A stretch of 64,000 nt of DNA, taken from positions 32,001-96,000 of the forward strand of contig CAWIBO010000002.1 of the NCBI GenBank assembly GCA_963834385.1, in the 5' to 3' direction. This DNA is from an uncultured Verrucomicrobiae bacterium. Lineage in GTDB: Bacteria; Verrucomicrobiota; Verrucomicrobiia; Chthoniobacterales; UBA10450. The position numbers were made by a program, and so were the translations under genes. The notes beneath the pieces are model-generated. The model had not been told where the DNA came from. It saw only the letters and a program-made list of their open reading frames with translations, and did not search any database. Of this stretch, positions 1,597-56,973 are shown piece by piece; position 1 is the first letter of the stretch; every line of letters starts with the position of its first letter.

Positions 1597-3298
1597 CTAA
1601 CCGTCATCGCCCATGGTGACCGCGATGACTTCCTCGGCGGAGGTCATGCCGGCGAGCACCTTGCGGATGCCGTCTTCGCGCAGGGTGCGCATGCCGAGTT
1701 CGCGGGCGCGTTGCCGCAGGACGAGGGTGGAAGCTGCTTGTTGATCATGTGGCGCACTTCGTCGTCGACGTCGAAGATCTCGAAGATGCCGAGACGGCCG
1801 TTGTAGCCGTTGCCCCGGCACTTCTCGCAACCGATCGGGCGCATGACCGTGGCCCCGGTGAGCTGGGAGGCATCCAGATTCAGCGCCCGCAGTTCCTCCT
1901 CGGAAAGCTCGGCCGGCTCTTGCAGTCGGCACAGAGCCGGCGGACGAGGCGCTGGGCCATGATGGCGCGCACGGCGGAGGCGATGAGGAACGGCTTCATG
2001 CCGATGTCGACCAGACGCGCCACGGCGGAGGGGGCGTCGTTGGTGTGCAGGGTGCTGAAAACCAAGGTGACCGGTGAGGGAGGCGTTGATGGCGATGTTG
2101 GCCGTCTCCAGGTCGCGAATTTCACCGATCATGATGATGTTCGGCGCCTGGCGGAGCATGGAGCGCAGCGCGGCGGCGAAGGTCATGCCGATGTCGTCCT
2201 TCACCATCACCTGGTTGATCCCGCTCATCTGGTATTCGACCGGGTCTTCCACGGTGATGATCTTGCGGTCGGGCTTGTTGATGAATTCAGGCAGGCGTAG
2301 AGCGTGGTGGTCTTGCCCGAGCCGGTCGGGCCGGTCACGAGGATGATGCCGTCGGGCAGGCTGAGGAGGTGCTCGAAGGTTTCCTGGTCGTCGCTGAAGA
2401 AGCCGAGCTCGGGCAGGCCGAGGAGCAGGCTCGATTTGTCGAGAATACGCATGACCACGCTTTCGCCGTGGTTGGTCGGAATGGTGGAGACGCGGAGATC
2501 GATCGCCTTGTTCCCGATCTTGACCTGGATGCGGCCGTCCTGCGGCAGGCGTTTCTCCGCGATGCTCATGGAGCCGGTCATGATCTTGAGGCGGGAGATG
2601 ATGGCAGACTGGAGCCGGCGGGGGGGCGCCTGCATTTCCTGGAGAACGCCATCGATGCGGAAGCGCACGCGAAACTTCGTCTCGAGCGGCTCGAGATGGA
2701 TGTCACTGGCGCCGGCCCGGTGCGCCTCGATCAGGAGCATGGAGACCATCTGGATGATGGGAGCGTCGGCCTCGTCGCCTTCCAGCGCCCCGGCGTTGTC
2801 GGTCAGCTCAAGGTCGAGGGCCGGTTCGCCGCCAAGTTGCTCGAGGAGGGCATCGGAGGCGTCGTCCGCCGACCCGTAATATTTGATCAGGGCCTCGCGG
2901 ATCTGGGCCGGGCTGGTGCAGACGAGCTCGAGTTCGCGCTGCAAAAGAAAGCCAAGGCTGTCGATGGTGTCGATGTCCAGGGGATCGCCCACGGCAACGA
3001 CCAGGCCGGAATCGCCCAGTCCCACCGGGATGACTTTGAAGCGGCGGGCGTGCGCGGGCCGGATCTGCTGGATGATCTCGGGCGGAATGACCCGGGTGGA
3101 GAGGTCGATCCAATCCATGTGCGCCTGTGCGGCGATGGTGCGGGAAACATCGGTTTCCGAGATGACGCCCTCCCGCACGAGCACCTCGACCGCGTTGGAG
3201 GAGCCGTTGCGCCGGGCTCGCGCGCCCGCGACCTGCTTGCCGGTAACGAGTCCCGCGTCCTGCAGCAACTCGAGCACGTAATCGTCGTTTCGGTGCAC
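1597..3298 (-). CDS. GspE/PilB family type II/IV secretion ATPase with MshEN-like N-terminus, frameshifted
   Basis: ORFs 2225-3298, 1644-2252, 1880-2125 and 1597-1932 join into one protein: [76 protein letters not shown]. Confidence 0.88.
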
Positions 3299-8325: not shown

Positions 8326-8793
8326 TCAGGCGGCGCCGAGCAGAGCCGGCCGGTTCTGGCGCGCGGCAGTCTGGCGGGCCCGCTGCTGGGCGGTGGCGAG
8401 CACGCGGGAAAGAACGCAGTAAAGCTGCTCGACCGGAAGATTTTTGCTCACGTAACCGTTGGCACCGGCGCGGAGCGCCTCGTGCATCCGGTTCTCGTCG
8501 TAGCCGACCCCGGTGAAAACGATGATGGGAAGCTGCGGCTGCACCTCGCGGATGAAGGAGATGAGGGCGATCCCGTCGACCTTGGGCATTCTCAGGTCGA
8601 CGATGGCGACTTCGCAATCGTGGAACTCGAGCCAGGAAGCGGTCTGGAACCCCTCGGTGAGCGATTCGCAGGTGTGACCTTTTTGGCGGAGGTAGGTGAC
8701 GAGGAACTTCGCGATGGCGGGGTCGTCGTCGATGATGAGGAAATCTGCGCGGTCGCGGTCGAGGATTTTCATGTGGCGTGTTATAATTTCCAT
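8326..8793 (-). CDS. Single-domain response regulator (REC)
   Basis: LIIDDD, IVDLRMPKVDG, FTG, GANGYVSK. Start is ATG 8793 or 8772; the longer upstream ORF extension runs through repeats. Confidence 0.88.
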   Translation of the reverse strand: MEIITRHMKILDRDRADFLIIDDDPAIAKFLVTYLRQKGHTCESLTEGFQTASWLEFHDCEVAIVDLRMPKVDGIALISFIREVQPQLPIIVFTGVGYDENRMHEALRAGANGYVSKNLPVEQLYCVLSRVLATAQQRARQTAARQNRPALLGAA

Positions 8794-11282: not shown

Positions 11283-13286
11283 TCAGTGACCGTTGCTCTG
11301 CAGGGGCAGAACCACGGTAACCCGCGTGCCGCGCGGGTTGGAGTCGATGTCAACCCGGCCGTTGTGGTCGAAGACAGTCCGTTTCACGATCGGCAGGCCG
11401 AGGCCCATGCCGCGGGCCTTGGTGGTGCAGAAGGGTGAGAAGACCTTTTCCTTCATGTCCGGTGCGATCCCGCGACCATTATCCTGCACGGTCACGGCCA
11501 CGCCGCTGGTCTCATCGCCTTCGCGGATTGGTTTGGCGGCCAGGGTGACCTGCGGTTTCTGCTGCCCGGTGGTGGCCTCGGCCGCGTTGGTCACAAGGTG
11601 GGCAAAGGCCTCGGTCAGGGCGGTTTCATCGCCCATGACGGAGGGGAGATTCTGCGGCAGCGACGTTTCAATGGGCATGCCGTTGCCGGCAAGACGCTGG
11701 CGGGCGAGGTCAACCGCCTTGCGTACGGCCGCGCCAAGGTCCACCGGCTTGATGATCAGCTCGGGCGGGTGGGCGAAGTTGTTGATCTGGGTGATGATCT
11801 TGTCGAGCCGGTCGATCTCCTGCACCACGATCTGGTTGAAATCCTTGCGGAAATCGGCGTCGTCGAACCGCTCGGGCAGGAGCTGGGCGAAGGTCTTGAT
11901 CGCGACGAGCGGGTTGCGGATTTCGTGCGACATGCTGGCCGCGAGATCAGTCCAGAAAGTGGCGCGGTCGAGCAGGTCCTGTTTTTGCCGGAGGCTCTCC
12001 TCCGCGGTGAGATCATGGATGACCGCGACGGCGCCGAGCGGGGTGCGCTGGTCCGAGAGTTTGCGGGTCTCGGCCTGGAGGGATTTCTGGGAATTGCGCT
12101 CGACCCACTGGCGTGGGGGCAGGGTGGACTTGCCATCGAGGGTATCGCGGAGGAACCCGGCCAAAAACGTCCCGAGTGCTTCGACCGGACGATTCAGAAC
12201 GTCGTTGGGGGACAATCCGAGCATTTGCTCCGCGGTCGGGTTAAACCAGCGGACCACGCCGTCCTCGTCGGTGGCGACGATGCCGGGTGGGATCGACTTG
12301 AGCAGCGTTTCGGCGAGCGTTTTCTGGAGGGTGATTTCCTCGTAGAGCAGGGCGTTCTCGAGAACGGTGGAAACGTGCTCGGCCAGGATGGTGAGGCCCT
12401 CGAGGTCGTTGTAATCGAACGGCTGGCCGGTGACGCGATGGCCGAAAAAGAGCCAGCCGATGATGCGGCCCCGGGCGTAAAGGGGGACGATGACCTCGGC
12501 GCCGAAGGTGTCGAGGGCGCGTCGCTGCAGAGCGCGCTGGGAGGGATCGACCGCGTGGGCGAGGTTGGCGCGGCAGATCAGGTGGGCATGGAGCTCGAAC
12601 CAGCGAACGAGCGGGTCGCGCTCGCCGAACTCGATCTCGTAGGTCTCCGGCAGGCAGCGAAGTCCCGCCCGGAGGCGATAGCGGTCGCCCTGACGAATGC
12701 GCGAGAAGATGCCGACCCGCGTGACCGTGGCGGCGTCCGCCACGCTCTCGACCACGCTGGCGAGGAGCGCGTCGACATTGTCGAACCGACGGAAAACGCG
12801 CGGGAAGCGCATGATGGGAAGAGAAGGGCTGCTGAACCGGTCGGGCAACCGCTCGAGGGGGCGGGCAGGCACGGGCACAGGCGCGAGGGTCGATTGCTCG
12901 CGCAGATCGCGATTCTCCTGTTTGACCCGGAGGAAATCAAAAGCGCGACCGACCAGGGCCTGGAACCGGCGGCGGTCGAGCTGGAGATCTTCCACCGCGT
13001 AGATGCCGCTCTGTTCGGCCTCGCGCAGCGGATCGGAGCGGGGCGTGCCGAGCGCCGTGATGAGCACATCGGGCCACTCCTGCTGGACCTGGTCGAGCAG
13101 GTCGCGCGAATCCTTTGCCCGCAGGTCGAGGAGGAGCAGGGCCGGGGTGGTCTGTTGCAGCACGCTGTCCAGGCGGTCGGCGTCGGCCACGTGGCGGATC
13201 TCGGCCACGGAACGCAGGAAAGCCTTCACCCGGCGGGCGAGATCGGCATCCTGAGTATAGAGAACGACCGCGGGAGTGGGGATCAT
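11283..13286 (-). CDS. Cytoplasmic histidine kinase: degenerate REC-like, GAF, PAS, HisKA, HATPase
   Basis: H-box SHEIRNPLVAIKTFAQLLPER, DNGRGI, PFCTTK, GMGLGL; GAF (VIVPLY...FGHRVTGQPF); overlaps the upstream kinase by ATGA. Confidence 0.92.
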   Translation of the reverse strand: MIPTPAVVLYTQDADLARRVKAFLRSVAEIRHVADADRLDSVLQQTTPALLLLDLRAKDSRDLLDQVQQEWPDVLITALGTPRSDPLREAEQSGIYAVEDLQLDRRRFQALVGRAFDFLRVKQENRDLREQSTLAPVPVPARPLERLPDRFSSPSLPIMRFPRVFRRFDNVDALLASVVESVADAATVTRVGIFSRIRQGDRYRLRAGLRCLPETYEIEFGERDPLVRWFELHAHLICRANLAHAVDPSQRALQRRALDTFGAEVIVPLYARGRIIGWLFFGHRVTGQPFDYNDLEGLTILAEHVSTVLENALLYEEITLQKTLAETLLKSIPPGIVATDEDGVVRWFNPTAEQMLGLSPNDVLNRPVEALGTFLAGFLRDTLDGKSTLPPRQWVERNSQKSLQAETRKLSDQRTPLGAVAVIHDLTAEESLRQKQDLLDRATFWTDLAASMSHEIRNPLVAIKTFAQLLPERFDDADFRKDFNQIVVQEIDRLDKIITQINNFAHPPELIIKPVDLGAAVRKAVDLARQRLAGNGMPIETSLPQNLPSVMGDETALTEAFAHLVTNAAEATTGQQKPQVTLAAKPIREGDETSGVAVTVQDNGRGIAPDMKEKVFSPFCTTKARGMGLGLPIVKRTVFDHNGRVDIDSNPRGTRVTVVLPLQSNGH

Positions 13287-15811
13287 GCCGCGGCTACTTC
13301 GCTCTCAAAACGCACCAGCGGAAGAAGAATATGAAAAGCGGTGCCTTTTTTCACCTCGCTCTCGACCTCGATCTGGCCGCCGTGTTCCTGGATGATCCCG
13401 TGCACCACCGAGAGGCCGAGGCCGGTCCCGTAGTCCTTGGTCGTGAAGAACGGGTCAAAAACCTGTCCGATGTCCTCGGGGCGGATCCCCTCGCCGCTGT
13501 CGCGGATGGTGACGCGCAGGATTTCCTGGGTGCTGCCGTTCGTTCGGGAAAGGGCGGAGACGACATGGTCATCGCGGGTGATGCGCGTGCTCACGGCGAG
13601 TTCGCCGCCTGTGCCCATAGCGTCCATGGCGTTGATGAAGAAATTTAGAAAGACCTGCTCCAGCTGGTCAGCGTCGGCGCGGATTGTATCAACTTCCGCC
13701 TGCCATGCCCGCGTTAATTTAATATCTTTTTGGTAGAGGCGATGGCCGACGAGCTGGAGCGATTTCTCGAGCGTCTCGTGGACGTGCATCGGTTTGAGGA
13801 GGGGCTTGGCCGGGCGGGCGAAGCGGAGGAGTTGGTTGACCAGGCTGTCAATGCGGTCGATTTCGTGCCCGATCAGGTTGGAAAAGGTCTCGCGGAAATC
13901 GGAATCCTGGTAACGCTCCGGGAGAAGCTGGGCAAAGGTCTTGATCGAGACGAGGGGGTTCTTGATCTCGTGGGCCATCCCGGCGGAGAGCGTGCCAAGG
14001 CTGGCCAGACGGTCGCTCCGCCGGATCTGCAACTCGAGCTGCTTGAGCGCGGAAATATCGGTCAGCACCAGCAAGGCGCCCAGGGTGGCGCCATCCTCGT
14101 CGCGGAAGATGGAGCTGCTGGCCCGGACAATGCGCGGCCGGCTGCCATCGCCGACGCGCATCTCCGGGTCCTCCTTGCGTTCGCCCGTCTGGAGGGTGGC
14201 GAGGAGCATGCGGCAGAGGTCGGCCGGCAGCCGGTCGATTTCCTGGCCGAGAATGTCAGCGGCGTTCAGCCCGGTGATGAGCTCGGCTTCGTGGTTGAAA
14301 ACGGTGACCTGCTGCTGGGCATCGGCGGCAATGACGCCGGTGGTAAGGTTTTGCAGCAGCGTTTCATTATAAATCTTGGCGTTCTGGACCTCGGTGAAAA
14401 GCTCCGCGTTCTCGATCGCGACGGCGAGCTGTCCGCACAGGACCTGGAGGGCGTTTTGCTCCGGGATCCCGTACATTCGCCCGGAGAGCCGCGGGCCGAG
14501 AACCATGACGCCGGCCAGGTGTTCGCGTGAGGCGATCGGCATGGCGATGGCGACCTGGAGCCCCTCCATCAGGGCGGCCACGCGCCGCAGCTGCGGGGTG
14601 AGACGAATACGACGCAGTTCCTCGAGCACGAGCGGTTCCCGGGTCTCTTCCAGTTGCTGAACGAGCGGGCTCTCCCGGTCGAACTCGAGCAGATCGCGCT
14701 GCAGCTCGTTTTCCGGGAGGGGATACCGCTGGATGAGGCCACCGCGTGCCGGGAGGAGAATGACGACGCGATCTGTCTTCATGGCCTCGGTGACGGTGGC
14801 GCCGAAGCGTTCCATCAGTTCGCGGAGAGTGCTGACCGAGTTGAGGATGGTGGCGGCCTTGCTCACGGTGGCGCCGAAGTCGAGTTGCCGGCTGCCGACG
14901 AAGAGACGGTCTGCCAGGCGCTGGGAAATGCCGCGGGCCGGGGCCATGGCAAAGGCAACGACGAGAGCGGCGACGATGTGGGCCATTTGTGTCCCCCCCG
15001 ATCCGATGAAAGGGACGAGGGCGGTGGTGACCAGCCACCAGACCGCGCCGTAGAGAGTGAGGAGATAAAGGGTGAGCAGGGCGTAGGAGATCACCCGGCG
15101 AAAGAAAACGCCCACTTCCATGATGCGCCGGGTGGTGATGCCGTAGGCGATGATGAGGCTGAACAGAACGATGCGGAAAGGAGCGAGCCAGTTCAGGAGC
15201 GACTGGTGCACAAAAGGCCGGATGAAAAGGGCCAGGAGAGTCAGGCCGAGGATGACGGCCGTGCCCATGAGGATGAAAGAAAGCTCCGTGCGCTCGCGGC
15301 CGCGGGCGTTCTTGATGTCCCGAACGTAAAGCACCAGGAGCGCGAGCCCGGCGGCGGCGAAATAGATGCTGTAGAGGTAGACGCCGTTTCCGTAGACCGG
15401 AACAGGGGTCAGGTTGGGCGCCCCCTGGGCCTGCGAGAAGACCGTGTCGGCCATGAAGAAAGGAGTCTGGCAGAGGAGAACAATGCCGAGGGCGGCGCCC
15501 AGCCAGTAGCGGGTGCCGAAGAGAAGCTCCCGCCAGCTCTGGTTCGGTCTCTTGATCGAGATCCGGAGGAGATTGAAGGAATAGAGAAGGAAGGCGCCGG
15601 CGGCAGAGGCCTGCCTGATGTAGAACTCGGCAGTGGCGAGATTCTCGGTGATCGAGATCAGGTAAAGGCTGCCCAGCCAGACGGCGATGGTGCTGGAGAG
15701 GACGAGGAAGGTCTGATTGGATTTGCGGCCGGGGCTGGCCTGGAAAACCGCGAAGCCCAGCGCGATCTGGATGATCTGGGCGACAAGGATGGGCGTGGTC
15801 GCAGCGTTCAT
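13283..15811 (-). CDS. Multi-TM membrane sensor histidine kinase with GAF and PAS domains
   Basis: About 8-9 N-terminal hydrophobic helices, GAF (IAMPI...LGPRLSGRMY), PAS, H-box AHEIKNPLVSIKTFAQLLPER, DSGEGI, PFFTTK, GTGLGL. Confidence 0.93.
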   Translation of the reverse strand: MNAATTPILVAQIIQIALGFAVFQASPGRKSNQTFLVLSSTIAVWLGSLYLISITENLATAEFYIRQASAAGAFLLYSFNLLRISIKRPNQSWRELLFGTRYWLGAALGIVLLCQTPFFMADTVFSQAQGAPNLTPVPVYGNGVYLYSIYFAAAGLALLVLYVRDIKNARGRERTELSFILMGTAVILGLTLLALFIRPFVHQSLLNWLAPFRIVLFSLIIAYGITTRRIMEVGVFFRRVISYALLTLYLLTLYGAVWWLVTTALVPFIGSGGTQMAHIVAALVVAFAMAPARGISQRLADRLFVGSRQLDFGATVSKAATILNSVSTLRELMERFGATVTEAMKTDRVVILLPARGGLIQRYPLPENELQRDLLEFDRESPLVQQLEETREPLVLEELRRIRLTPQLRRVAALMEGLQVAIAMPIASREHLAGVMVLGPRLSGRMYGIPEQNALQVLCGQLAVAIENAELFTEVQNAKIYNETLLQNLTTGVIAADAQQQVTVFNHEAELITGLNAADILGQEIDRLPADLCRMLLATLQTGERKEDPEMRVGDGSRPRIVRASSSIFRDEDGATLGALLVLTDISALKQLELQIRRSDRLASLGTLSAGMAHEIKNPLVSIKTFAQLLPERYQDSDFRETFSNLIGHEIDRIDSLVNQLLRFARPAKPLLKPMHVHETLEKSLQLVGHRLYQKDIKLTRAWQAEVDTIRADADQLEQVFLNFFINAMDAMGTGGELAVSTRITRDDHVVSALSRTNGSTQEILRVTIRDSGEGIRPEDIGQVFDPFFTTKDYGTGLGLSVVHGIIQEHGGQIEVESEVKKGTAFHILLPLVRFESEVAAA

Positions 15812-15872
15812 CCGGTGCGGCGTGCGGGCTGGGAGGTGGGAAAACGAGGATCGCGCTCCATACCGTCGCGCG

Positions 15873-17114
15873 TCAGGCCGCCGGGCGAAGAATAATCATG
15901 GTCGCGGCGCTGCCCCCGATGCCGCGCACATTGACCAGGGCGCGGTCGATCCGGGTCCTGCGGGGCCGGTTGGCCACAAAGTTCAAATCGCACTTGGGAT
16001 CGGGGTTTTCGTAGTTGGCGGTGGGCGGGATGAGCTGGTCGCGCATGCTCAAGGCGCAGGCGATCAGCTGGAACGGGCCGCCGGCGGCCATGGCATTGCC
16101 GGTCACACCTTTGATTGAATTGACCGGGATATCGTAGGCGCGCGGCCCGAAAACCTCCTTGATGCTGGCGACTTCCGTTTCATCCAGCACCGGATGGCCC
16201 GGTCCGTAGGCGGAAATATAGTCGATCTGGTTGATATCGAGCCCGCCGTTGGCGAGCGCCAGCTTCATGGAATCGGCCAGGCCCGAGCCGGGCCGGCCGG
16301 CATCGCGGTCGCGTTGTTTTCCGTAACAGCAGATCTCAAAATGGATTTGCGCGCCGCGCGCTTCCGCCCGCGCCAGGTTTTCCAGGATCATGACGCCGGC
16401 GCCTTCCGCCAGGACGCCCGAGTCGCGTTCCAGGTCAAAGGGCCGGCTGGCTTTCTCCGGTTCGTCGTTGCGGCAGGAGCTCAGCCCGCTGGCAATGAAC
16501 ATCGACAGGGCCAGGGGCGTGATCGGGGTGTCCGTTCCCCCCGCGATGGCCACCTCTGCCTCGCCGGAGCGGATCATTTCCGCGGCCGTGGCAACGGCAT
16601 CAAGGCCCGATGGGCAGGCGGAGGAAATCGTGGCGGCATCGGCGCTCAGGCCGATCCGGTCGGCGATCATGTTGGCCGCCGCCTGCGGGATCATATGGGC
16701 CGCCGTGCTGGGGGCAGCCCGGTTGGGGCCCTTTTGCTCGACGTCCTCGAAGGCTTTTTCCAGCACATCAATGGCGCTGGAACTCACCCCGATCACCACC
16801 GGCGTCGGGCTGGGAAAATCGAGGTTCTTGGGATCGTAGCCGGCGTTCTCCAAGGCCATCATGGTGGCGGCAAAAGCGAACTGCGTATGCCGGGCCATGC
16901 GTTTCGGTTTCAGCTCGGGCTCGATGAAGTCCTGCGGATCGAAATTTTTCACCTCGCCCGCGATCCGGCTTTTGAACCCGGTGGTGTCAAAGTGGGTGAT
17001 GGGCGCGATGCCGCTGCGGCCGCTGAGAAGGGAATCCCAGAAAGCCTTCAAACCGATGCCATTTGGGGCGACCACGCCCATCCCGGTCACGACGACACGA
17101 TTTTTTTTTCTCAT
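15873..17114 (-). CDS. FabF-like beta-ketoacyl synthase family protein with atypical active site
   Basis: RVVVTGMGVVAPNG, SRIAGEVKNFDP, SSACPSG (Cys kept), SRPFDLERD, EGAG. His motifs are altered (AYGPGH, KGVTGNAMAAGG). Start ATG at 17114. Confidence 0.9.
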   Translation of the reverse strand: MRKKNRVVVTGMGVVAPNGIGLKAFWDSLLSGRSGIAPITHFDTTGFKSRIAGEVKNFDPQDFIEPELKPKRMARHTQFAFAATMMALENAGYDPKNLDFPSPTPVVIGVSSSAIDVLEKAFEDVEQKGPNRAAPSTAAHMIPQAAANMIADRIGLSADAATISSACPSGLDAVATAAEMIRSGEAEVAIAGGTDTPITPLALSMFIASGLSSCRNDEPEKASRPFDLERDSGVLAEGAGVMILENLARAEARGAQIHFEICCYGKQRDRDAGRPGSGLADSMKLALANGGLDINQIDYISAYGPGHPVLDETEVASIKEVFGPRAYDIPVNSIKGVTGNAMAAGGPFQLIACALSMRDQLIPPTANYENPDPKCDLNFVANRPRRTRIDRALVNVRGIGGSAATMIILRPAA

Positions 17115-17253
17115 GGAGTTATCGGTCCCGTTTCTTCTCACAACTGAATGCCCGGGGAGGAAGGTTTTTTAATGGTTATGTAATTTCTGGTAATTTCGGG
17201 AGACTTCTGCGTCGCCCACTGTTATTCACCAAATTTGAGAGTTATTCACAAGT

Positions 17254-17269
17254 TGCATCTTGCGTGCCG
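17254..17269 (-). promoter_or_regulatory. Putative sigma54 (-24/-12) promoter for the ketosynthase-kinase genes
   Basis: Minus strand reads CGGCACGCAAGATGCA: exact GG-N10-GC spacing and close to TGGCACG-N4-TTGC(A/T), inside an AT-rich intergenic region. Confidence 0.6.
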
Positions 17270-17376
17270 GAACAATTTGTTTCACCCTCGGGCCCGCCGC
17301 CACTCCTCGATTTCCGCTCCTCCCGTAAATCGTTCGTTGTCGGGCACAACCTTAGCTCTATCCCTGCCTCGCACCC

Positions 17377-18531
17377 ATGATCGCTTCTCCTGATCTGCCG
17401 CAGGTCCTTGTCATCGACGATGAAATAGGCCCCCGCGAGAGCCTGCGCATGCTTCTCAAGCCCAGTTACCGCGTCCACACCGCCGAATGCGTCGCCGACG
17501 GTGTCCGTCTTCTCCAGGAAAAAAAACCTGATGCCGTCATCACCGATATCCGCATGCCCGGCGTGAGCGGCATCGACGGCCTGCGCCAGATCCGCGAGAT
17601 CGACCCGCATGTCTCGGTCATCATGCTGACCGGGTTCGGCGCCCTGGAAACGGCGCAGGAGGCGCTTCGGCTCGGGGCCAACGATTATATCAGCAAGCCG
17701 TTCGACGCCCGCGAAATGCGCGAGGTCATCAGCCGCAACGTCGAGCGCACCCGGGTGCACCGCGCGGGGGAGAACGCCGCCCTGGAAATCCGCGGATTAA
17801 ACGATCGCCTCCTCAAAGAGCTGGCCCAGAAAGAACGCCTGGCCTCGCTCGGCCAGGCCTCGGCCGAGTTCGTCCACGATATCAGCAACCCGCTCACCAT
17901 CGTCTGGGGTTACGTCCAACTGCTTGCGCGCAAACTCGAGCAGCAGGAGAAAACCGAGGGCGAATCGGCCGCGTCCGCCCGTGAATTAAATATCATCGAA
18001 CAGAATGTCCGTCTCTGCCGCGACCTCCTGGTCATGTGGCAGAGCTACGGCAGCGAGGAAGCGGCGCCGCACAAGCCCATCTCGGTTTCCTCCATTGTTC
18101 GCGACGTCATCAAGGCCATGGAGGGCATGGCGGCGCAGCACAAAGTGACGCTGACCGGGCAGGTCTGCGAGGAACCGGGCAGCCTCCTGGGCGACGCCGT
18201 CCAGGTCCAGCGCGCCATCCAGAACGTGGTCACCAACGCCGTGCAGGCGGCGGCGGAAAGGGATAATGGCGGCACGGTCTCCGTCTCCTGCCAGCAACGG
18301 GAATTTTACACCGACGTGCGCGTGGAAGATTCCGGCACGGGGATGACCCCGGAACAGATCATCAAAATTTTCGATCCTTACTTCACGACCAAGCAGGGCA
18401 AGAGCGGCACCGGCCTCGGCCTCTACATCACGAAGAAGGTGGTCGATGATCATAACGGTTCGATCAAGGTCGACAGCACGCCGGGTGCGGGCAGCGTTTT
18501 TACCATCCGCCTTCCGCTGCTGAACGCCTGA
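17377..18531 (+). CDS. Hybrid response regulator/histidine kinase (REC-HisKA-HATPase)
   Basis: VLVIDDE, TDIRMPG, LTGFG, YISKPF; FVHDISNPL; EDSGTGM, YFTTK, GTGLGL. Confidence 0.93.
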   Translation: MIASPDLPQVLVIDDEIGPRESLRMLLKPSYRVHTAECVADGVRLLQEKKPDAVITDIRMPGVSGIDGLRQIREIDPHVSVIMLTGFGALETAQEALRLGANDYISKPFDAREMREVISRNVERTRVHRAGENAALEIRGLNDRLLKELAQKERLASLGQASAEFVHDISNPLTIVWGYVQLLARKLEQQEKTEGESAASARELNIIEQNVRLCRDLLVMWQSYGSEEAAPHKPISVSSIVRDVIKAMEGMAAQHKVTLTGQVCEEPGSLLGDAVQVQRAIQNVVTNAVQAAAERDNGGTVSVSCQQREFYTDVRVEDSGTGMTPEQIIKIFDPYFTTKQGKSGTGLGLYITKKVVDDHNGSIKVDSTPGAGSVFTIRLPLLNA

Positions 18532-18577: not shown

Positions 18578-21007
18578 GTGCCCGCCGGTTATTGTGTTGC
18601 ACCTGTTTTCGCCCTTCGCACGACCGGTGTCCCGTTTCGGCACGTAGCCGGCCTGGCCACACCGCGGGCCACGGAGATCGCGCGCGCGCTTCTGACCGCC
18701 CGGGCCGAGCAAGCCCGGCTGCGCAAGGAACTGAACGATCTTTTCGGTCGGCAGGAGTTCCGCATGTCGGGCCCGCCCTTCCAGTTGGCGGTGGCCGTCA
18801 TGCGGGGTCGCGCCTTGACCGTGGCTCCCGGCGTGGTGCTGCCTCCGGCCGTGCCGGCACTGGCGGAGATTTCCGCCCGGATTGCGGAACTGGAGAAACA
18901 ATTCGAGCCGGTTTTGCGTGCGGAGGTGGCGCAGGCGCGCATGGCCCTGCGCCGCTCCTGCCGCGACGTTCTCCCCGATTACCTGATTTTCGGCGCGGGC
19001 GATATTCGGCGCGAAGTGGCCGAACTGGGGATCGAGGAAGTCGGCGGCGAGCTTCCCGCCCGCAATTCCAAGGAACGCGCGCGCGAGCGGCACCTCCTTC
19101 TCTATCTGCAGCGTCTCTGCGGCAAGAACGACACTTTCAGCCGGTTCGGTCCGTCAACCTGGGGTCGGCTGGATGAAACGGTCACAGGCGTCCGCTTTGA
19201 ACCGAGTGCCGGCATCGATGAACGTCATCTCCTTCTTGAACGCTGGACGGCCCATCTCCTGGCACGCGCCCTGAACGCTGATCCCGCCGCGCGCCGCCAG
19301 TTTTGTCCGCGGCTCCACCCGAACGGCCGGATCGAGGGGAACGAGTTCGTCTTCATCGAGGACAACCGGCGCGTGCCGCTGTCGCCTGCGCTGCGCGAGC
19401 TGCTCGACCAGTGTGACGGGCAAACGCCGGCGCAGGGGCTGGAGGCCGGGCTGCCACAACTGGAGGAGTTGGTGGACCTCGGTGTTCTTCTTTTGGGAGC
19501 CGAGGTGCCCGCGCTGGAAGCGAACGCTTTTGGCGTGCTGGTGCAGGATATCGCCGCGTGGCCGGCCGGCGAGGTTCGCACCGGCTGGCTCGACCGGGCG
19601 GAACGGCTGGGCCGGCTGCCGGCCGAGTTTGGCGCCAGCACGGCGATTGCGCACCGCGTGACGGTGATGAACGAAGCGCGCCGGCTTCTTGGTGAACTGG
19701 GCGAAACCGAAGCGCTGGGGCAGCGGGCGCTCTACAAGGCGGCCAACCCAATTCTCGAGGAGTGCGCCCGGTTCTCCCAATTCCATCTTGGCGTGGAGGC
19801 GGCGGCCGCGCTCACCCGCGAGGGCCGGCCCTGGCTTGACCTTTGGCGCGACACCTATGCCTTTGTCGCGAGCCGCCTTGCCCAGGCCCTGCGCCATCTC
19901 CACCAGTCGGCGCCCCGGCACGACGGTGCGGTGGCCTGGCCGGCGTTCCTGGCCCATTGCGCGCGGCAGAACATGCCGCTCACCGGTCATGGCCTGGTGG
20001 CCCCGGGGCACGTGGCGTTCCAGGAGGTAAAAGGGGCATTCCGCAGGGCCCTGGAAGAGCGTGCGGGAGAGGCCGAGGTGGAACTCACGGCGGAAGATTG
20101 CGCGATTGTGCGCCGCAGTTTTTCGTTCCCCGCCTTCGACGAATACACTTATCCGTCGGCAGACCTGCAGATTGCGGCGCGCTCCTTCGAGGCCATGGCG
20201 CGGGGCGAATACCAATGGATCATCGCGGAACTGCATCCGGCGGTGGCCCTGCTGCACCACGGGCTTTTTTGGAGCTGCCCGGAGAAGGAGGTGCTGGCCG
20301 GGGCGCTGCGGGCCACCACCTTTGGGCAACCGAGTCCGCATTACGGATTTCACGCGGCCGATTTTACGGCGCACACGACGGTGCACCTGATGGAAGCGCT
20401 GGGAGAACAGAGCGTGTTTGTCGCGCCGCAGCGCGGGCGGCCGGAGTGGAACCCGATCCCGCCCGCGGAGGTGGAGGTGGTGGTGCAGGAGGAGAGCGGC
20501 GACGTGGTCCTGCGCCAGCGCGGCACGGGGCGTCATCTTGGTTCGCTGGCCCGGAACTGGTTGATTCCGCTTGGTTTTCATCCGTTCCATTTCGGGCGGA
20601 CGCCGCACATGCCGCGTTTGCGCTGCGGGAACGTGATCGTGCAGCGCCGTTCCTGGACGGTGAAGCTCGAGGAGCTGGCCCCGGGCAATCATGCCGGCAT
20701 CTCGCCCGCGCTCGTCTCAGCGGTGGAGTCGCTCCGGGCGGAGAAAGGCTGGCCCCGGCACATTTACATTCGGCCGACCGAGCAGGCGCTCCGGCGGAGT
20801 GGAGCGGAGGGGCGCGACAAGGACACCAAGCCGGTCTACGTGGATCTCGAGAGCTACCTTTTCCTGGAAATCTTCCATCGTTGGCTGACGAAGGCGGGCG
20901 AACTGGAAGTGACCGAGATGCTGCCGGACCCCGAACATCTGTGCTGGCAGGAACCGGGTGGAAATCACACCTTTGAGATCCGCACCCTTATTGTGCCGGA
21001 AACATGA
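18578..21007 (+). CDS. Small LanB / PEARL-like (peptide aminoacyl-tRNA ligase-like) protein lacking an elimination domain
   Basis: YLQRLCGKNDTFSRFGP, SADLQI, IAELHP, PRLRCGNVIVQRRSW, KPVYVD, EMLPDPEHL...FEIR; about 810 aa, ends right after the glutamylation-type domain. Confidence 0.82.
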   Translation: MPAGYCVAPVFALRTTGVPFRHVAGLATPRATEIARALLTARAEQARLRKELNDLFGRQEFRMSGPPFQLAVAVMRGRALTVAPGVVLPPAVPALAEISARIAELEKQFEPVLRAEVAQARMALRRSCRDVLPDYLIFGAGDIRREVAELGIEEVGGELPARNSKERARERHLLLYLQRLCGKNDTFSRFGPSTWGRLDETVTGVRFEPSAGIDERHLLLERWTAHLLARALNADPAARRQFCPRLHPNGRIEGNEFVFIEDNRRVPLSPALRELLDQCDGQTPAQGLEAGLPQLEELVDLGVLLLGAEVPALEANAFGVLVQDIAAWPAGEVRTGWLDRAERLGRLPAEFGASTAIAHRVTVMNEARRLLGELGETEALGQRALYKAANPILEECARFSQFHLGVEAAAALTREGRPWLDLWRDTYAFVASRLAQALRHLHQSAPRHDGAVAWPAFLAHCARQNMPLTGHGLVAPGHVAFQEVKGAFRRALEERAGEAEVELTAEDCAIVRRSFSFPAFDEYTYPSADLQIAARSFEAMARGEYQWIIAELHPAVALLHHGLFWSCPEKEVLAGALRATTFGQPSPHYGFHAADFTAHTTVHLMEALGEQSVFVAPQRGRPEWNPIPPAEVEVVVQEESGDVVLRQRGTGRHLGSLARNWLIPLGFHPFHFGRTPHMPRLRCGNVIVQRRSWTVKLEELAPGNHAGISPALVSAVESLRAEKGWPRHIYIRPTEQALRRSGAEGRDKDTKPVYVDLESYLFLEIFHRWLTKAGELEVTEMLPDPEHLCWQEPGGNHTFEIRTLIVPET

Positions 21008-21786
21008 AGATCATCGCCATCGCCAACCAGAAAGGGGGAGTGGGTAAAACCACCACCGCGGTCAACCTGAGCGTGGCGCTCGGCGAAGTGGGCCAGCGCG
21101 TTCTCCTGATCGATCTCGATCCGCAGGGCAACGCCACCAGTTCCTTTGGTCTGCAGGAAATCGAGGGCGAAAGCCTTTACGACCCGATCCTTGGCCAGGC
21201 TCGCCTGGCGGACAAGATCGTGCCCACGCGGCATGGGAACGTTTTCATGATCACGGCCGACCTCGACCTCGCGGGAGCGGAGATCGAGATCGCCCGGATG
21301 CCGGATCACCTCACGCGGCTGCGGGAAGCGATGGAACCGCTGCGCCGGGATGCCACCTTCGACTTCGTCTTTCTCGATTGTCCGCCCTCGCTCGGCATTC
21401 TGATGACGAACGCGCTCGCGGCCGCGGACGAGCTGCTCACCCCGATCCAGTGCGAATACTTCGCGCTCGAGGGCCTGGTGAAAATTGTGCGCGTGGTGGA
21501 ACAGGTGCGCGATTCCGGGGCGAATCCCGGGGTGCGGATCAATGGGATCGTCATGACCATGTTCGACAGCCGGACCAATCTGAGCGGGCAGGTGGTGGAC
21601 GAAGTGCGCCAGCATTTTGGCGAACAAATCTACAGCACCATCATTCCCCGCAGCGTCCGCCTGAGTGAGGCGCCCAGTTTCGGCAAGTCGGTGCTCGAGC
21701 ATGATCCGACCGGCCCGGGTGCGCGGGCTTACCGGGCGCTGGCGGCGGAGTTCTGGGAGCGCCAGAAAGGCGGGAAGCGTCGTTAG
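21004..21786 (+). CDS. parA: ParA/Soj family ATPase
   Basis: ANQKGGVGKTTT, IDLDPQGNAT, LDCPPSLG, QCEYFALEGL, IPRSVRLSEAPSFG. Confidence 0.93.
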   Translation: MKIIAIANQKGGVGKTTTAVNLSVALGEVGQRVLLIDLDPQGNATSSFGLQEIEGESLYDPILGQARLADKIVPTRHGNVFMITADLDLAGAEIEIARMPDHLTRLREAMEPLRRDATFDFVFLDCPPSLGILMTNALAAADELLTPIQCEYFALEGLVKIVRVVEQVRDSGANPGVRINGIVMTMFDSRTNLSGQVVDEVRQHFGEQIYSTIIPRSVRLSEAPSFGKSVLEHDPTGPGARAYRALAAEFWERQKGGKRR

Positions 21787-22106: not shown

Positions 22107-22217
22107 TGAGTTTTCGCGGCGATTTGATGGGCGGGATTTGCCGAGAGCGGGAACCCGTGCTACGTTCAGTTGAACGTAAAAGGCGTCAGGGATTTTTCGC
22201 CGCGCGTATCAATCACG

Positions 22218-23472
22218 GTGGATTTACAGGGTAAACTCGCAATTCTGGCTGACGCGGCGAAGTACGACGCTTCCTGCGCGAGCAGCGGCACGACCAAACG
22301 CAACGCGCGTGTCTCGGGCGGCCTCGGCTCCACGGTCGGGACCGGGATTTGTCACAGCTACACCCCGGACGGGCGCTGCGTTTCCCTCCTCAAGATTCTT
22401 CTGACCAATTACTGCGTCTACGACTGCCTTTATTGCATCAACCGCGTTTCCAGCGATGTGCCACGGGCCCGTTTTACTCCCGACGAGGTGATCAAGCTGA
22501 CCCTCGATTTTTACCGCCGCAATTATATCGAGGGGCTTTTCCTCAGCTCGGGGATCATTCGCAATCCGGATTACACCATGGAGCAGGTGATCGCCGTGGC
22601 CCGTCGGCTCCGATTGGAACACCAGTTTCGCGGCTATATCCATTTAAAGACGATTCCCGAGGCTTCGCCCGCGCTGATCGAGGAAGCGGGCCGGTGGGCG
22701 GACCGAATCAGCATCAACATTGAGCTGCCGACCCCGGCCGATGTGGCGAGGCTCGCGCCGGAGAAAAGCTTCGAGAACACCCGCAAAGCCATGGGCGGGA
22801 TCCGGGATCGAATTGCCGAGGCGAAAGCGGCACGAAAAGAGACGGCGAAAGCGCCGGCTTTTGCCCCCGCTGGCCAAAGCACGCAAATGATCGTGGGCGC
22901 GACGGAAGCGAGCGACGCCACCATCCTGGAGCAGGCTTCCGATCTCTACGCGAAGCATAAGCTGCGTCGGGTTTATTACTCGGCTTTCAGTCCCATCCCG
23001 AGCGCGTCGAGCAAGCTGCCGTTGATCGCACCACCGTTGGTGCGGGAACACCGGCTTTACCAGGCCGACTGGCTGGTCCGTTTTTATGGGTTCAAACCGG
23101 CGGAGCTGACCACTCCGGAGGCGCAGAAATCTTGATCTGAACATTGATCCAAAACTGGCCTGGGCCCTGCGCCACCAGGCGGAGTTTCCCGTCGACCTGA
23201 ACCGCGCCGCGCGGGAATCGCTCCTGCGTGTGCCGGGGTTGGGCACCAAATCCGTTGAACGGATTTTGCGTCTGCGGCGCTGGCACAAGCTCCGGCTGGA
23301 TGACCTGACTCGTCTGCGTTTGCCGGTGAAGAAGGTTCTGCCTTTTGTCATCACGGCCGATTACCGGCCGGTCACACTCGAAGGGACGGAGCGGGACAGT
23401 TTTCTTTCTCCGCGGCCTGCCCAGATGGATTTGTTCCCGCGCGAAACCTCGGTGGTGACCGGTCAATTATGA
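22218..23472 (+). CDS. Putative DNA modification/repair radical SAM protein (TIGR03916-like); one frameshift near 23128
   Basis: KLAILADAAKYDASC, GICHSYTPDGRC, CVYDCLYC, REHRLYQADWL. Removing one A at CAGAAATC restores NLDLNIDPKLAWAL and the HhH LLRVPGLG. Confidence 0.9.
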
Positions 23473-24900
23473 TCCGGCCCATGGAGCATCTGCTTTTTGC
23501 GCCAGGCTTCGCCGGCTGGCAGCAGGCGGCGCGGGCGGCCCTTTCCCGCGAATTGATCCCGGAGGAGGTGGCCTGGCAGGAACTTGGGGCGGACCAGCCT
23601 GACCTCGCGCTCTTCGAAACGGAGGTCGTCGCAGCGGCGCCCGCGACCACGGCTTTCCGCGTTCCCCGCCGTTTCGTCGAGCTGGCCCGCCTGGTGGCTT
23701 TGCATCGCGAGGAGGCGCGCTGGGGCCTGCTTTACCGGCTCCTTTGGCGAATCACGCATGGTGAACCGCGCCTGCTCGATATTTTCGTGGATCCGGACGT
23801 GAGCCGCGCTTCCGCGCTGCAGAAGGCGGTCCGGCACGACATTCACAAGATGCGGGCGTTTGTCCGGTTTCGCGAGGTGAAGATGGCCGACGGGCCATGG
23901 TTCGTGGCCTGGTTCGAGCCGGAACACCACATCGTCGAACACAACGCGCAGTTCTTTGTCGATCGTTTCGCCTCGATGCGCTGGTCGATCCTGACCCCGG
24001 AACGATGCGCGCACTGGGATGGAAAGGAGTTGTCGATCACCGCCGGGGTGAACAGGAGCGAGGCGCCGCAGGAGGACGAGATCGAGCCGCTCTGGCTCAC
24101 CTATTACGCAAACATCTTTAACCCGGCCCGGGTGAAAGTGCAGGCCATGCAGGCGGAGATGCCGCGGAAGTACTGGCGGAATCTTCCGGAAAGCGAATTG
24201 ATTCCCGCTCTTTTACGCGAGGCCCCGCGAAGAATGGATGAGATGGCGAGGAAAAGCGCGGCCCAAACGGCGGAGGCGGAAGAGTTCTGGTCGCCGGCGC
24301 AGCCGCCCGCGACCTCGAGCTTGAAGAAGATGGAAGAGGCGGCGGCGGCCTGTCGCGCCTGTCACCTTTACAAGCGCGCCACGCAAACGGTCTTCGGCGA
24401 AGGCCCGAAGGAAGCCACCTTTATGCTCCTCGGCGAGCAACCGGGCGACCAGGAGGATTTGGCCGGCAAGCCGTTTGTCGGGCCGGCGGGGAAACTGCTC
24501 GACCGCGCCCTGGTGGAGGCGGGGATCGACCGGGACGAAGTTTACGTCACCAACACGGTCAAACATTTCAAGTGGGAACCGCGCGGCAAGCGGCGTCTGC
24601 ACCAGAAACCGAACTCGCGCGACATTGCCGCCTGTCGTCCGTGGTTCGAGGCGGAGCTGGCCCTGGTGAAACCGAAGCTCCTCATCTGCCTCGGCTCGAC
24701 CGCGGCCCAGGCCATCCTCGGGTCCGGTTTCCGGGTCACGCGTGAACGCGGCAAAGTGCTCGAGTCGCCCCTGGCCCCGCGTGTTCTGGCGACGGTCGCA
24801 TCCCTCCTCGCTCCTGCGCCAGCCTGACGAGGAAGCCCGGGCGCAGGCTTACGCTCTTTTCCTGGATGATCTGCGCGCAGCGGTTGCTGCCGTGGCCTGA
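23469..24900 (+). CDS. DUF4130 (TIGR03915-like)-UdgX family uracil-DNA glycosylase fusion; one frameshift near 24797
   Basis: HKMRAFVRF, WFEPEHHI, IFNPAR, MPRKYW; CRAC, GEQPGDQED, VKHFKW, R-loop GKRRLHQKP. Removing one base restores TVHPSSLLR through to TGA at 24900. Confidence 0.9.
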
Positions 24901-25379: not shown

Positions 25380-25452
25380 TGGAGGTAAGGGGATTCGAAC
25401 CCCTGGCCTCGTCATTGCGAACGACGCGCTCTACCAACTGAGCTATACCCCC
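25380..25452 (-). tRNA. tRNA-Ala(CGC)
   Basis: GGGGGTATAGCTCAGTTGGTAGAGCGCGTCGTTCGCAATGACGAGGCCAGGGGTTCGAATCCCCTTACCTCCA: anticodon CGC, G3:U70 pair, CCA not encoded. Confidence 0.97.
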
Positions 25453-37396: not shown

Positions 37397-37583
37397 GGCG
37401 GAGCCGCGCGGGGGCGCGAGGCCGAATCTCTGGCGACCGACTGAGAAAGAACCTGACTGGTTCTCTGATATCTACATACAGGAAGTGTTCCGCACAATTG
37501 GAAGGCTTCGTTTTATTTTCAAGTCATTCCCCTCTGTTGGCCGCTGCATCCTTGCGGACGCAGCGGGTTAACAGAAAAGTAAA

Positions 37584-40444
<2,861 letters not shown>

Positions 40445-40763
40445 ATCTGTTCCGGTCCCGGCTTTCGCCAGAACCAGAGATTTTTTATGATAACTGAAAC
40501 TCTCACGGGCCAGGGATCTTACCCCCCGGCCGTTTATTTCAGACTCAGCTCTTCAAAGTTGTACTTACTTACTACCCTGTATGTAGATATCAAAGAACCA
40601 GCGGTCCCAGCACCATTTCAGCCCACAAAAAAACCCAACCCTGTCTTCCGACTCAAAAACGTTTCCGTTCAACAGCCGGGACAAAATTGAGTTCCAATTT
40701 GCAGTCCCAAAATGTGCAAGAACCACCCCGGCTTTGCCGAGGCCCGCTTTCGGCGGGACGAAG

Positions 40764-40791
40764 AAAATAACCCGCCCCGCCTTTCCGTCAA
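40764..40791 (-). promoter_or_regulatory. Putative sigma70 promoter for the 23S-5S unit
   Basis: Minus strand TTGACG-N16-TATTTT, about 320 bp upstream of the 23S 5' end. Confidence 0.55.
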
Positions 40792-40940
40792 CGCCGGAAA
40801 TGAAGATTTTTCGAAAAATCTCTCCCGGCCGAAGCCTCCGGGAGGAAGCACTTTAGGTTGCCCCCCTCCCCGAACAAGCCCGGCCACCCCAAAAAAAGTT
40901 AAGAGGACTGCCCAGGCCGCCGGCGCCGTATTCCCTCTGT

Positions 40941-41801
40941 ATGGGACGGAAGAAAAAGCAGCGCCCCCGCCAGGAGCAATCGCAGCAGCCCGGTCGCGAA
41001 CACCTCATGAAGCCTCGGCCCAGGGCCGATGACCCCGGCTATCGCGGCAGCGGCAAGTTAAAGGACAAGGTCGCGCTGATCACCGGCGGCGACAGCGGCA
41101 TCGGCCGCGCCGTGGCCCTCTTTTTCGCCCGGGAAGGGGCCGACATCTCCATCGTCTACCTGGAGGAGAAAAAGGACGCGAAGGAGACCCGGCGCCTGGT
41201 GGAAAAGGAGGGACGCCGCTGCCTCCTCCTCGCCGGCGACATCGGCAGCGAAAAGTTCTGCCGGCGAGCGGTCGAGCGGACGGTTTCCCGGCTGGGCGGA
41301 CTCAATATCCTGGTGAACAACGCCGCCGAGCAGCACCCGAAGGAGAGCATCGAGGAAATCAGCGCCAAACAGCTCGAGCGAACCTTTCGCACCAACCTCT
41401 TTTCCTTCTTTTACCTGACCAAGGCGGCCCTGCCGCACCTCGGGAAAGGCGACTCGGTGATCAACACCACCTCGGTCACGGCCTACAAAGGGAGCGACCA
41501 TCTGCTCGATTATTCCTCGACCAAGGGCGCCATCGTCGCCTTCACCCGCTCCTTCTCCCAGGCCGTGGTCGACCGCGGCATCCGGGTCAACGGGGTGGCC
41601 CCGGGCCCGATCTGGACCCCGCTCATCCCCTCCACCTTCCCGGGCGAACGCGTGGAGACATTCGGCTCCGACGTGCCGATGAAGCGGGCCGGGCAGCCCG
41701 AGGAGATTGCGCCCTGCTACGTTTTCCTGGCCTCGGACGACAGTTCCTACATGACCGGGCAGATTCTTCATCCGAACGGCGGCACGATCGTGAACGGCTG
41801 A
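40941..41801 (+). CDS. SDR family oxidoreductase (YghA/YhxC stress-protein type)
   Basis: YRGSGKL, TGGDSGIG, NNAAEQ, YSSTKG, APGPIWTPLIP. Confidence 0.93.
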   Translation: MGRKKKQRPRQEQSQQPGREHLMKPRPRADDPGYRGSGKLKDKVALITGGDSGIGRAVALFFAREGADISIVYLEEKKDAKETRRLVEKEGRRCLLLAGDIGSEKFCRRAVERTVSRLGGLNILVNNAAEQHPKESIEEISAKQLERTFRTNLFSFFYLTKAALPHLGKGDSVINTTSVTAYKGSDHLLDYSSTKGAIVAFTRSFSQAVVDRGIRVNGVAPGPIWTPLIPSTFPGERVETFGSDVPMKRAGQPEEIAPCYVFLASDDSSYMTGQILHPNGGTIVNG

Positions 41802-54861: not shown

Positions 54862-54952
54862 GCCGGGCGCCCGGGCCTTTTGGATTGCGTGGGCGAAGTG
54901 TTCCCGTAATCCTGCAGTGAGGGAACGGGGCACCCCTGGCTCCTCCCGGCGC

Positions 54953-56182: not shown

Positions 56183-56911
56183 AGCTGCCGGCTGGCCGAT
56201 CCGGCCCCGGCCTTCGTGATAATCGTAGGCGCCCTGGCCGTAGGTGAAATGCAGGCGACAGAAAGACGCGAAATTTAGATCGTGGTAATGGCGCACCACG
56301 GCCTCGGGAGCATAGGCGATCTCGCGGCCGCCGTTCAGCCACCGCCGGCAGAGCTCCCGGTCCTCCGCGGCGGCCCGGGGCCAATGCAGGGAAAATCCCC
56401 CGGCTTCCCGCAACTCCGCCGCCGCGACTGCCATGTTGCTGCTCGGGTAGAAATGCGCCCGGCCCTGGGCCGGATCGTAATAGGCGCAGACCGAGTCCAG
56501 GATGAGGTGACAGGTCGCCGCATAGGGGTTCTCCTCCAGGCCATTGATGGTTCGGCCGCCAAAAAGCGTGTGCGGACGGTCGGCCAGGCGGCTTTCCAGT
56601 CGGCGCAGCCAGTCGGTCGCCGGACGGCAATCATCGTCGGTGAAGGCAAGATACTCCCCCCGGGCCCGCGCAATCCCGAGATTGCGCGCCGCCGCCGGCC
56701 CGGACGGCGACTGGCGCAGGAGCGAGAGATCAAGCTGCGCCCGAAAAGGATTCGTCACCGCGTCGAGCGCATGCGCACTGCCATCGTCGACCACCAGCAC
56801 TTCGAAGCGGTCGCGCGGGTAATCCAAAGCGGCGATCGCCTGGAGACAGGCCCCCAGCGCGACCGGCCGGTTGCGGGTTGGAATAATGACGGAGAATTGC
56901 AGCGGGGACAC
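56018..56911 (-). CDS. Family 2 glycosyltransferase
   Basis: SVIIPTRNR, VVDDGS, GPAAARN, FTDDDC, AEDREL. Confidence 0.9.
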   Translation of the reverse strand: MSPLQFSVIIPTRNRPVALGACLQAIAALDYPRDRFEVLVVDDGSAHALDAVTNPFRAQLDLSLLRQSPSGPAAARNLGIARARGEYLAFTDDDCRPATDWLRRLESRLADRPHTLFGGRTINGLEENPYAATCHLILDSVCAYYDPAQGRAHFYPSSNMAVAAAELREAGGFSLHWPRAAAEDRELCRRWLNGGREIAYAPEAVVRHYHDLNFASFCRLHFTYGQGAYDYHEGRGRIGQPAALKPDWKFHAGCFRRALAQKPRTRALRMAFLLGVWQTANTLGYLAERFTAGSGRG

Positions 56912-56973
56912 GCGGATGTTGTTCGGTCGTTGCTTCTCTTCACTTTGGCCGTTAGGAGAGTCAACCAGAAGTC

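Follow-up and report, generated by a model that had tools for sequence, protein, structure and literature searches.

A predicted PEARL-type amide ligase beside a ketosynthase and sensor-kinase block in a family of Chthoniobacterales

What might an enzyme of a mostly peptide-modifying family do where no peptide can be found for it? The question is raised by one gene in a stretch of 64,000 nucleotides from an uncultured Verrucomicrobiae bacterium of the order Chthoniobacterales (GenBank assembly GCA_963834385.1, contig CAWIBO010000002.1, positions 32,001 to 96,000), which we call the window. The gene lies at 18578–21007 on the plus strand and encodes a predicted PEARL-type (LanB_C) amide ligase, dependent on ATP and aminoacyl-tRNA. 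Characterised PEARLs belong to biosynthetic clusters, where they make antibiotics or metabolites derived from amino acids. Here, in a family of soil Verrucomicrobia, a PEARL is near-core and tied into a signalling block found across the phylum. It occupies the slot in which a variable enzyme stands in other lineages. Judging the substrate class from this gene context, we tentatively favour the view that the PEARL uses ATP and aminoacyl-tRNA to amidate a small hydrophobic acid that the block makes or senses. Among the open-access papers listed by our searches we found neither a PEARL in a signalling block of Chthoniobacterales or Udaeobacter nor a report of a PEARL, a LanB, a lanthipeptide or ketosynthase/kinase quorum sensing from Chthoniobacterales.

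The ligase gene and its conserved residues

The open reading frame (ORF) starts with GTG and encodes 809 amino acids without internal stops. A gap of 46 bp separates its start from the stop of a hybrid kinase gene at 18531, and its 3′ end shares an ATGA with the start of parA at 21004. It contains the motifs QRLCGKNDTFSRFGP (residues 178–192), AELH (550–553), KPVYVD (751–756), EMLP (780–783) and EIR (800–802). An earlier note, made from this DNA alone, had described the intact frame, the motifs, the gap and the overlap, and inspection of the ORF confirms all of them. That note had also proposed comparing the profiles PF04738 and PF14028. The first, a LanB glutamylation-like domain, is matched at E 1.8e-13 (50 bits, cut-off 28); the second gave no Pfam match at E≤0.1, and the protein carries no elimination domain. 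Searches of NCBIfam with the protein and of the PDB with the single sequence returned no match. A profile built from 52 sequences of the PEARL family matched TbtB (PDB 6EC7) at E 3e-7. TbtB (6EC7/6EC8) is the only solved relative that we found, and it differs from PEARLs in lacking their Asp and Arg, in glutamylating Ser/Thr side chains without ATP and in having an elimination partner.

Three motifs discriminate PEARLs from dehydratases in a published alignment (PMC11212132, supplement file 1). At all three sites the window protein has the PEARL form, namely Y-x-Q-R..K-N-D-T (176–186), S-A-D (D529) and E-I-R (E800, R802). PMC11117183 names D542, E564, E801 and R803 in TglB and gives Tyr and Leu at the positions of D542 and R803 in split LanBs. 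The key residues of the window protein are R14, Y176, R179, K183, D529, E551, H553, R690, E800 and R802. They include counterparts of the PEARL-specific ATP residues (D542, E801 and R803 of TglB, also E564 and the following His) and of those concerned with the tRNA 3′ end and with amide formation (R10 of TglB, Y205 and R208 of BhaB7, and the K-N motif), with equivalences drawn by motif and spacing against published partial alignments rather than a full alignment of TglB. D529 and E551 are 22 residues apart, as are D542 and E564 of TglB. Across 72 proteins (the window protein and the 71 of 80 genome loci that yielded a complete ORF) R14, R179, K183, R383, D529, E551, H553, R690, E800 and R802 are identical, N184 is kept in 71, and Y176 is Tyr in 67 and Phe in 5. 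Because the protein retains the Asp, Glu and Arg specific to PEARLs and no elimination partner was found, the sequence supports an intact PEARL-type protein, as the earlier note had proposed, with a predicted activity dependent on ATP and aminoacyl-tRNA.

Among the closest known systems, TglB, BhaB1/4/5/7 and AmmB also carry PF04738 without an elimination domain in about 800 amino acids, and they share with the window protein the motifs, equally spaced, that hold the tRNA-end residues and the ATP-grasp Asp/Glu/Glu/Arg (PMC11962472 and PMC11117183). Unlike these enzymes, the window PEARL comes without a scaffold peptide, a protease or a tailoring cluster. It is mostly single-copy across the family and stands beside sensor kinases, and the segment at the position of a recognition element for peptides that ribosomes make and that are modified after translation (RiPP recognition element, RRE) is often deleted.

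This segment comprises residues 245–300 (19310–19477, plus strand). It has been cleanly removed from 16 of 71 intact orthologues, as residues 48–100 have from 17 of 71, and the starred branches of a quick tree force at least four changes in it. The window protein retains it, as do most full-length relatives outside the family. Both its place and its pattern would fit an RRE, the element expected here. Profile searches of Pfam, NCBIfam and the PDB did not confirm an RRE fold, and 1 of 40 relatives matched PqqD at E 0.009. Variants of 672–688 amino acids (L042, L071, L085 and others) lack both segments and keep all catalytic residues; natural variants of 670–690 amino acids show how small PEARLs may be made.

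The signalling block and its variable position

The enzyme had been described in the earlier note as an orphan with no tailoring genes. This overlooked a ketosynthase-like gene that lies divergently 1.5 kb upstream and accompanies the PEARL, and the enzyme is not an orphan, because it occurs and is lost together with a block of ketosynthase and kinase genes. Gene order was mapped by tblastn in the top 80 of the 226 loci from genomes, each count below being taken over the loci with enough flank; all-against-all clustering of ORFs had been dominated by shadow ORFs. The order is HK_A, HK_B and the ketosynthase on the minus strand, then the hybrid kinase, the PEARL and parA on the plus strand. HK_A (11283–13286; 55/55 loci) is a cytoplasmic GAF-PAS histidine kinase whose gene overlaps the end of HK_B. 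HK_B (13283–15811; 60/60) is a membrane sensor kinase with an N-terminus like HisKA_7TM, followed by GAF, PAS, HisKA and HATPase domains and a conserved tail whose last residues are Ala-Ala. The FabF-like ketosynthase (KS) is encoded at 15873–17114 (65/65). The hybrid receiver-histidine kinase (RRHK; 17377–18531; 73/73) lies upstream of the PEARL and is the first gene of a predicted RRHK-PEARL-parA operon, and parA/soj (21004–21786; 77/77) overlaps the PEARL by ATGA in 59 of 79 loci. Farther out, beyond fba and lpxD, stands a gene for a single-domain response regulator, RR1 (8326–8772, minus strand; 148 aa, tail Gly-Ala-Ala). The neighbourhood check suggested in the earlier note thus returned a fixed block. 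Its proposal that the enzyme works outside natural-product biosynthesis gains support insofar as the PEARL, within one family, is near-core, mostly single-copy and syntenic in a signalling block.

A few loci depart from this order. A second PEARL copy in one genome (L142:395–1591 in G679, 2% contamination) has an O-methyltransferase between PEARL and parA, and the same O-methyltransferase family is present in the module at L219, L220 and L255. At L281:1739–2869 an ORF of the fatty-acid-desaturase family is inserted before the PEARL, and a related ORF follows parA at L275:5826–6887. L185 (G623) has an intact PEARL together with a frameshifted ketosynthase and an interrupted HK_B, which assembly error or decay of the block may explain.

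The block also exists without a PEARL. In a sister family, f75, the ketosynthase has an orthologue in 11 of 27 genomes and the PEARL profile has a match in none of the 27. All 11 module loci keep the ketosynthase and the hybrid kinase, and 10 also keep HK_B and HK_A (at one the contig ends). Of the two, the block is the older. In all 11 loci the hybrid kinase adjoins a gene for a 420-aa PaaK-like AMP-dependent ligase (PF00501; PDB match to PaaK at E 1.9e-21), which was found in none of 121 genomes of the PEARL family by a search without a positive control of its own. PEARLs and PaaK-like ligases both use ATP to activate a carboxylate. Close relatives of the f75 ligase in Streptomyces (L336:7986–15427) occur with an MFS transporter, a GNAT protein, an acyl-protein synthase and an acyl-CoA reductase.

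Elsewhere in the phylum the same position is filled in other ways. The sensor half of HK_B is present in 50 of 401 phylum genomes, and we compared 40 of the 47 HK_B-bearing loci outside the PEARL family. A gene for a FadL/TodX channel is found in 31 of the 40. At 33 loci the flank of the hybrid kinase is visible, and the next recognised gene there encodes a flavoprotein of the vanillyl-alcohol oxidase (VAO)/p-cresol-methylhydroxylase (PCMH) type in 17, an S-adenosylmethionine (SAM) methyltransferase in 7, a PEMT-type methyltransferase in 3 and a radical SAM enzyme in 1; the remaining 7 of the 40 loci are truncated or differently arranged. A GH3 identity was considered for the ~535-aa gene that adjoins the hybrid kinase in other classes and proved wrong; the gene encodes the VAO/PCMH-type oxidase. 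An NtrC-like regulator is present in 18 other module loci. Judged by its genes, the module would combine a receptor in the membrane, a protein that handles acyl groups and, in many loci, a channel for hydrophobic molecules with one variable enzyme of a family that modifies small molecules; where the latter stands elsewhere, the PEARL stands here. With its ketosynthase, seven-transmembrane (7TM) kinase, GAF-PAS kinase, FadL and hybrid kinase, the module looks like an undescribed chemical signalling system. The locus fits a synthase/receptor module of quorum sensing by gene inventory only. We saw the module across Verrucomicrobiota (L216–L255, L173–L183, window 11283–18531), with swappable tailoring enzymes.

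The catalytic triad of FabF is Cys-His-His. In the window ketosynthase, aligned to PDB 1J3N, Cys167 is kept and the two His positions hold Tyr303 and Asn340; the protein also falls below the cut-off of TIGR03150. The same triad characterises the PEARL family (Cys 62/62, Tyr 61/62, Asn 62/62). Most loci outside the family read Cys-His-Asn (Cys 37, His 31 and Asn 30 of 37), and f75 reads Cys-Trp-Asn (Trp 11/11, Asn 9/11). The idea that loss of the His tracks the presence of a ligase is weakened by L235, which has a PaaK-like gene yet keeps the His.

The distribution of the PEARL is narrow. Its profile finds 44 of 48 genomes of the family and none of 252 genomes in 15 other families of the order; among 400 phylum genomes it finds both family members and one partial match of 34% elsewhere. 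(The genome tallies of this paragraph take in two unpublished genomes, G559 and G757; none of the claims depends solely on these.) In metagenomes, 77 of 80 loci belong to the same family by neighbourhood and identity. None of 29 candidate stretches on viral contigs is a PEARL relative, and plasmids gave partial actinomycete matches at 27–38% only. In a sample of 120 family genomes, the PEARL is present in 105, HK_B in 103 and RR1 in 101 of the 108 outside the genus g193, and each is absent from all 12 genomes of g193. Four g193 genomes read NYN, lpxD, enoyl-CoA hydratase, parA, with the block, fba and RR1 gone. Since g193 is nested within the family in the ParA tree (without starred support), its absence is probably one secondary loss. 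Because parA is kept where the block is missing, it is probably a neighbour of the module rather than a member.

Where did the PEARL come from? In a FastTree phylogeny of 80 rows, the family PEARLs (14 family rows and the metagenome locus L289) form one clade with support 100, which is nested within a set of relatives; the few of these that bear names belong to Kofleriaceae and Anaeromyxobacter. Three short contigs carry outside relatives, two of them with tandem PEARL pairs (L288, L296), and a divergently oriented GH3 gene lies beside the pair of L288. Both contigs are of high GC content and Myxococcota-like, and may hold uncharacterised pearlin clusters. A link of the mnmG-parA type was not found in the outside relatives; the order at L291 differs, with a GIDA-family gene, the PEARL and an ORF like a methyltransferase. 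From these relationships we tentatively infer that the PEARL was recruited from a natural-product cluster like those of its outside relatives; a single event at the root of the family would have added it to a module that existed already.

The divergent gap between KS and RRHK holds a direct repeat, TTATTCAC-N12-TTATTCAC(A), with a 20-bp period (17222–17250, plus strand), the only such pair in the window and the genome. TTATTCACA occurs in 59 of 67 of these gaps within the family, as a pair in 39 of 67, and in 1 of 47 outside gaps, counted on that strand. The repeat is DnaA-box-like and likely serves as a site for a regulator. A further TTATTCACA lies just after dnaA (G000 C2:719000). A scan for sigma-70 promoters gave no site. 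A small ORF in the gap was considered as a precursor and rejected because the repeat spacing breaks frame in 8 of the 39 pairs; the signal is a DNA repeat.

What the ligase may act on

If the PEARL amidates a small acid, known PEARL chemistry would provide the steps. ATP would phosphorylate the carboxylate of the small hydrophobic acid to an acyl phosphate, the amine of an aminoacyl-tRNA would attack it, and hydrolysis of the tRNA would release an N-acyl amino acid. From the gene context, the acid would be a product or ligand of the ketosynthase-like protein and its signal would be read by the 7TM kinase HK_B. Conjugation with an amino acid would then switch the signal on or off by making or cancelling the ligand of HK_B. 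Acid-amino acid ligases of the GH3/ANL type follow the same logic, with activation by ATP and then formation of an amide that switches a signal near its receptor; the window PEARL differs from them in fold and in its tRNA donor. Bacterial signals made by ketosynthases offer a comparable arrangement. The chemistry of PEARLs is described in PMC11962472; most characterised members act on scaffold peptides. There are small-molecule precedents, SinB1/SinB2 of sinefungin (bioRxiv 10.64898/2026.05.21.726688) and SnaE of threopeptin (PMC11212132), which work, or are proposed to work, on a small carboxylate of non-ribosomal origin with no precursor peptide involved. These enzymes sit in actinomycete antibiotic clusters for nucleosides or for products of nonribosomal peptide synthetases and polyketide synthases, unlike the window PEARL, which is surrounded by kinases, a ketosynthase that stands alone and parA in a conserved two-component block. 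FeeG decarboxylates N-acyl-tyrosines oxidatively (PMC8762209).

Because the slot elsewhere holds families that modify small molecules, we prefer modification of a small signal to that of an antibiotic peptide. Amidation of a small acid is further supported by the joint absence in g193, the single-locus insertions of an O-methyltransferase (L142) and a desaturase-like ORF (L281), the repeated deletion of 245–300, a scan for precursor motifs that gave no candidate and the small-molecule precedents. If it is true, the module would be an uncharacterised ketosynthase/7TM-kinase system of chemical signalling with lineage-specific tailoring, and a PEARL would be able to replace an adenylate-forming ligase.

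Several observations speak against amidation of a small acid. The ketosynthase of the PEARL family lacks both His and therefore may not condense anything, and no gene for an acyl-carrier protein or an exporter was seen in the block. Because the slot lies at the border of the block, bystanders or regulated outputs may be among its occupants. Of the 33 hybrid-kinase flanks, 28 hold one of the enzymes listed above and 5 hold none, "next recognised gene" allows for intervening genes in some of the 33, and the orientation of the PaaK-like gene relative to the hybrid kinase varies in f75. The metagenome locus L289 has PEARL and parA, with the kinase block absent from the 8 kb upstream. The absence in g193 is a single event, a contiguous deletion that also took fba. 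Segment 245–300 is only a candidate RRE, and the RRE is reported to be apparently unimportant in the peptide-acting BhaB7 and TglB anyway (PMC11962472). Finally, HK_B keeps its Ala-Ala tail far more strictly in company with a PEARL: the tail is found at 53 of 56 family loci, loci with broken or open ends being dropped, and at 4 of 48 modules without a PEARL.

The last point leads to the main alternative, which we regard as somewhat unlikely, namely that the PEARL adds a residue to the C-termini of HK_B and/or RR1, where it would mask or tune ClpXP-like Ala-Ala degrons and so set the lifetime of these proteins. Ala-Ala ends 64 of the 2169 called proteins of the genome, and the tail of RR1 is Ala-Ala in 16 and Val-Ala in 3 of 19. 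The distribution of RR1 mirrors that of the PEARL, and in five genomes with a module and no PEARL one RR1 homologue, of 40%, was found, without the tail. RR1 may simply be the phospho-acceptor of the block, taking the place of the NtrC-like regulator. Since tails and PEARL are confined to one lineage, their match counts as one event; Ala-Ala degrons can be conserved without a ligase, and beyond the four HK_B proteins that end in Ala-Ala without a PEARL, several more end in similar small-residue tails. The biochemistry of BhaB7 points both ways: it takes whole proteins to which a 14-mer ending in Ala has been fused (PMC11962472), and a PAAAA end abolished its activity. Ala-Ala is termed the classical ClpXP degron (PMC8119881), and the genome has a clpX-like gene. 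The operon is flanked by the DnaA-box-like repeat and parA, which hints, speculatively, at a link to the cell cycle. The fuller version, in which a PEARL from natural-product pathways adds a non-encoded residue to the HK_B/RR1 tails and masks ClpXP degrons, possibly in a cell-cycle-linked circuit, is in our view unlikely. It would mean a new post-translational control of protein lifetime by ribosome-independent C-terminal tagging. Tagging in either form leaves unexplained why small-molecule enzymes stand in the same slot elsewhere. For the earlier note's proposal that a cellular protein's C-terminus is tagged, HK_B and RR1 are the two named candidates, but comparing the gene slots favours a small-molecule acid somewhat more.

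Is the enzyme instead an ordinary pearlin enzyme, with its scaffold peptide and tailoring genes elsewhere in the genome? The habits of most characterised PEARLs, the cluster-like tandem pairs of the closest outside relatives, the 89.6% completeness of the assembly and the retention of 245–300 in the window protein all leave room for this, yet the searches for a partner make it distinctly unlikely. Among 20,595 short ORFs, four end in F(N/D)L(D/E) or like BhaA, all inside larger genes (these two motif tests would miss a divergent scaffold); the acidic short ORFs of the genome include no convincing precursor, and the flanking gaps of the PEARL hold no conserved ORF and no room for one. No scaffold peptide with tailoring or release enzymes stands beside the PEARL. 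The incomplete assembly has one PF04738 locus and no LanC (PF05147) that we could find, and the loss of 245–300 has recurred. That no precursor is adjacent and no LanC visible in the window (neither LanC nor an elimination domain among 42 proteins scanned, not every ORF) is as the earlier note said; its suggestion of a distant peptide substrate gained no support from scanning the genome. If the enzyme were the glutamylation half of a split LanB dehydratase, PF04738 and the similarity to TbtB would fit, but the window protein has D529 and R802 where split LanBs have Tyr and Leu, and K-N-D-T instead of R/K-S/T-T/S-P. Neither LanC nor PF14028 was found in the genome, the PF14028 search being uninformative as its control was also silent, and this reading is already largely refuted and very improbable. 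A PEARL tied to parA, or a hitch-hiker whose place beside the kinases reflects conserved gene order, is improbable as well. It would account for the ATGA coupling, for L289, for the 4.5 kb inserted between the hybrid kinase and the PEARL at the metagenome locus L290, and for gene order kept over the whole region. Against it, g193 and 5 of 5 genomes from other families carry parA and lack a PEARL, the C-terminus of ParA shows no conservation, and the g193 deletion ends at parA and removes the PEARL together with the block.

Other observations in the window

The parA gene and a parB-like gene (G000 C1:148723–149691) are on different contigs, and in five other Chthoniobacterales genomes parA has no obvious parB neighbour within the short flanks available. 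Downstream of parA, a radical SAM gene is paired with a DUF4130/uracil-DNA-glycosylase gene (22170–24827); the radical SAM ORF stops at 23135 and its homology continues, a probable frameshift. Likewise, a type II/IV secretion ATPase gene at 1647–3298 appears to be split over two overlapping ORFs, probably also by a frameshift. A tRNA-Ala(CGC) gene is at 25380–25452. The stretch from about 37500 to 41000 has lower GC content and no long ORFs and reads like a minus-strand rRNA operon. At the far end of the window (54917–64000), ORFs resembling glycosyltransferases, an oxidoreductase and a flippase likely serve the synthesis of a surface polysaccharide.

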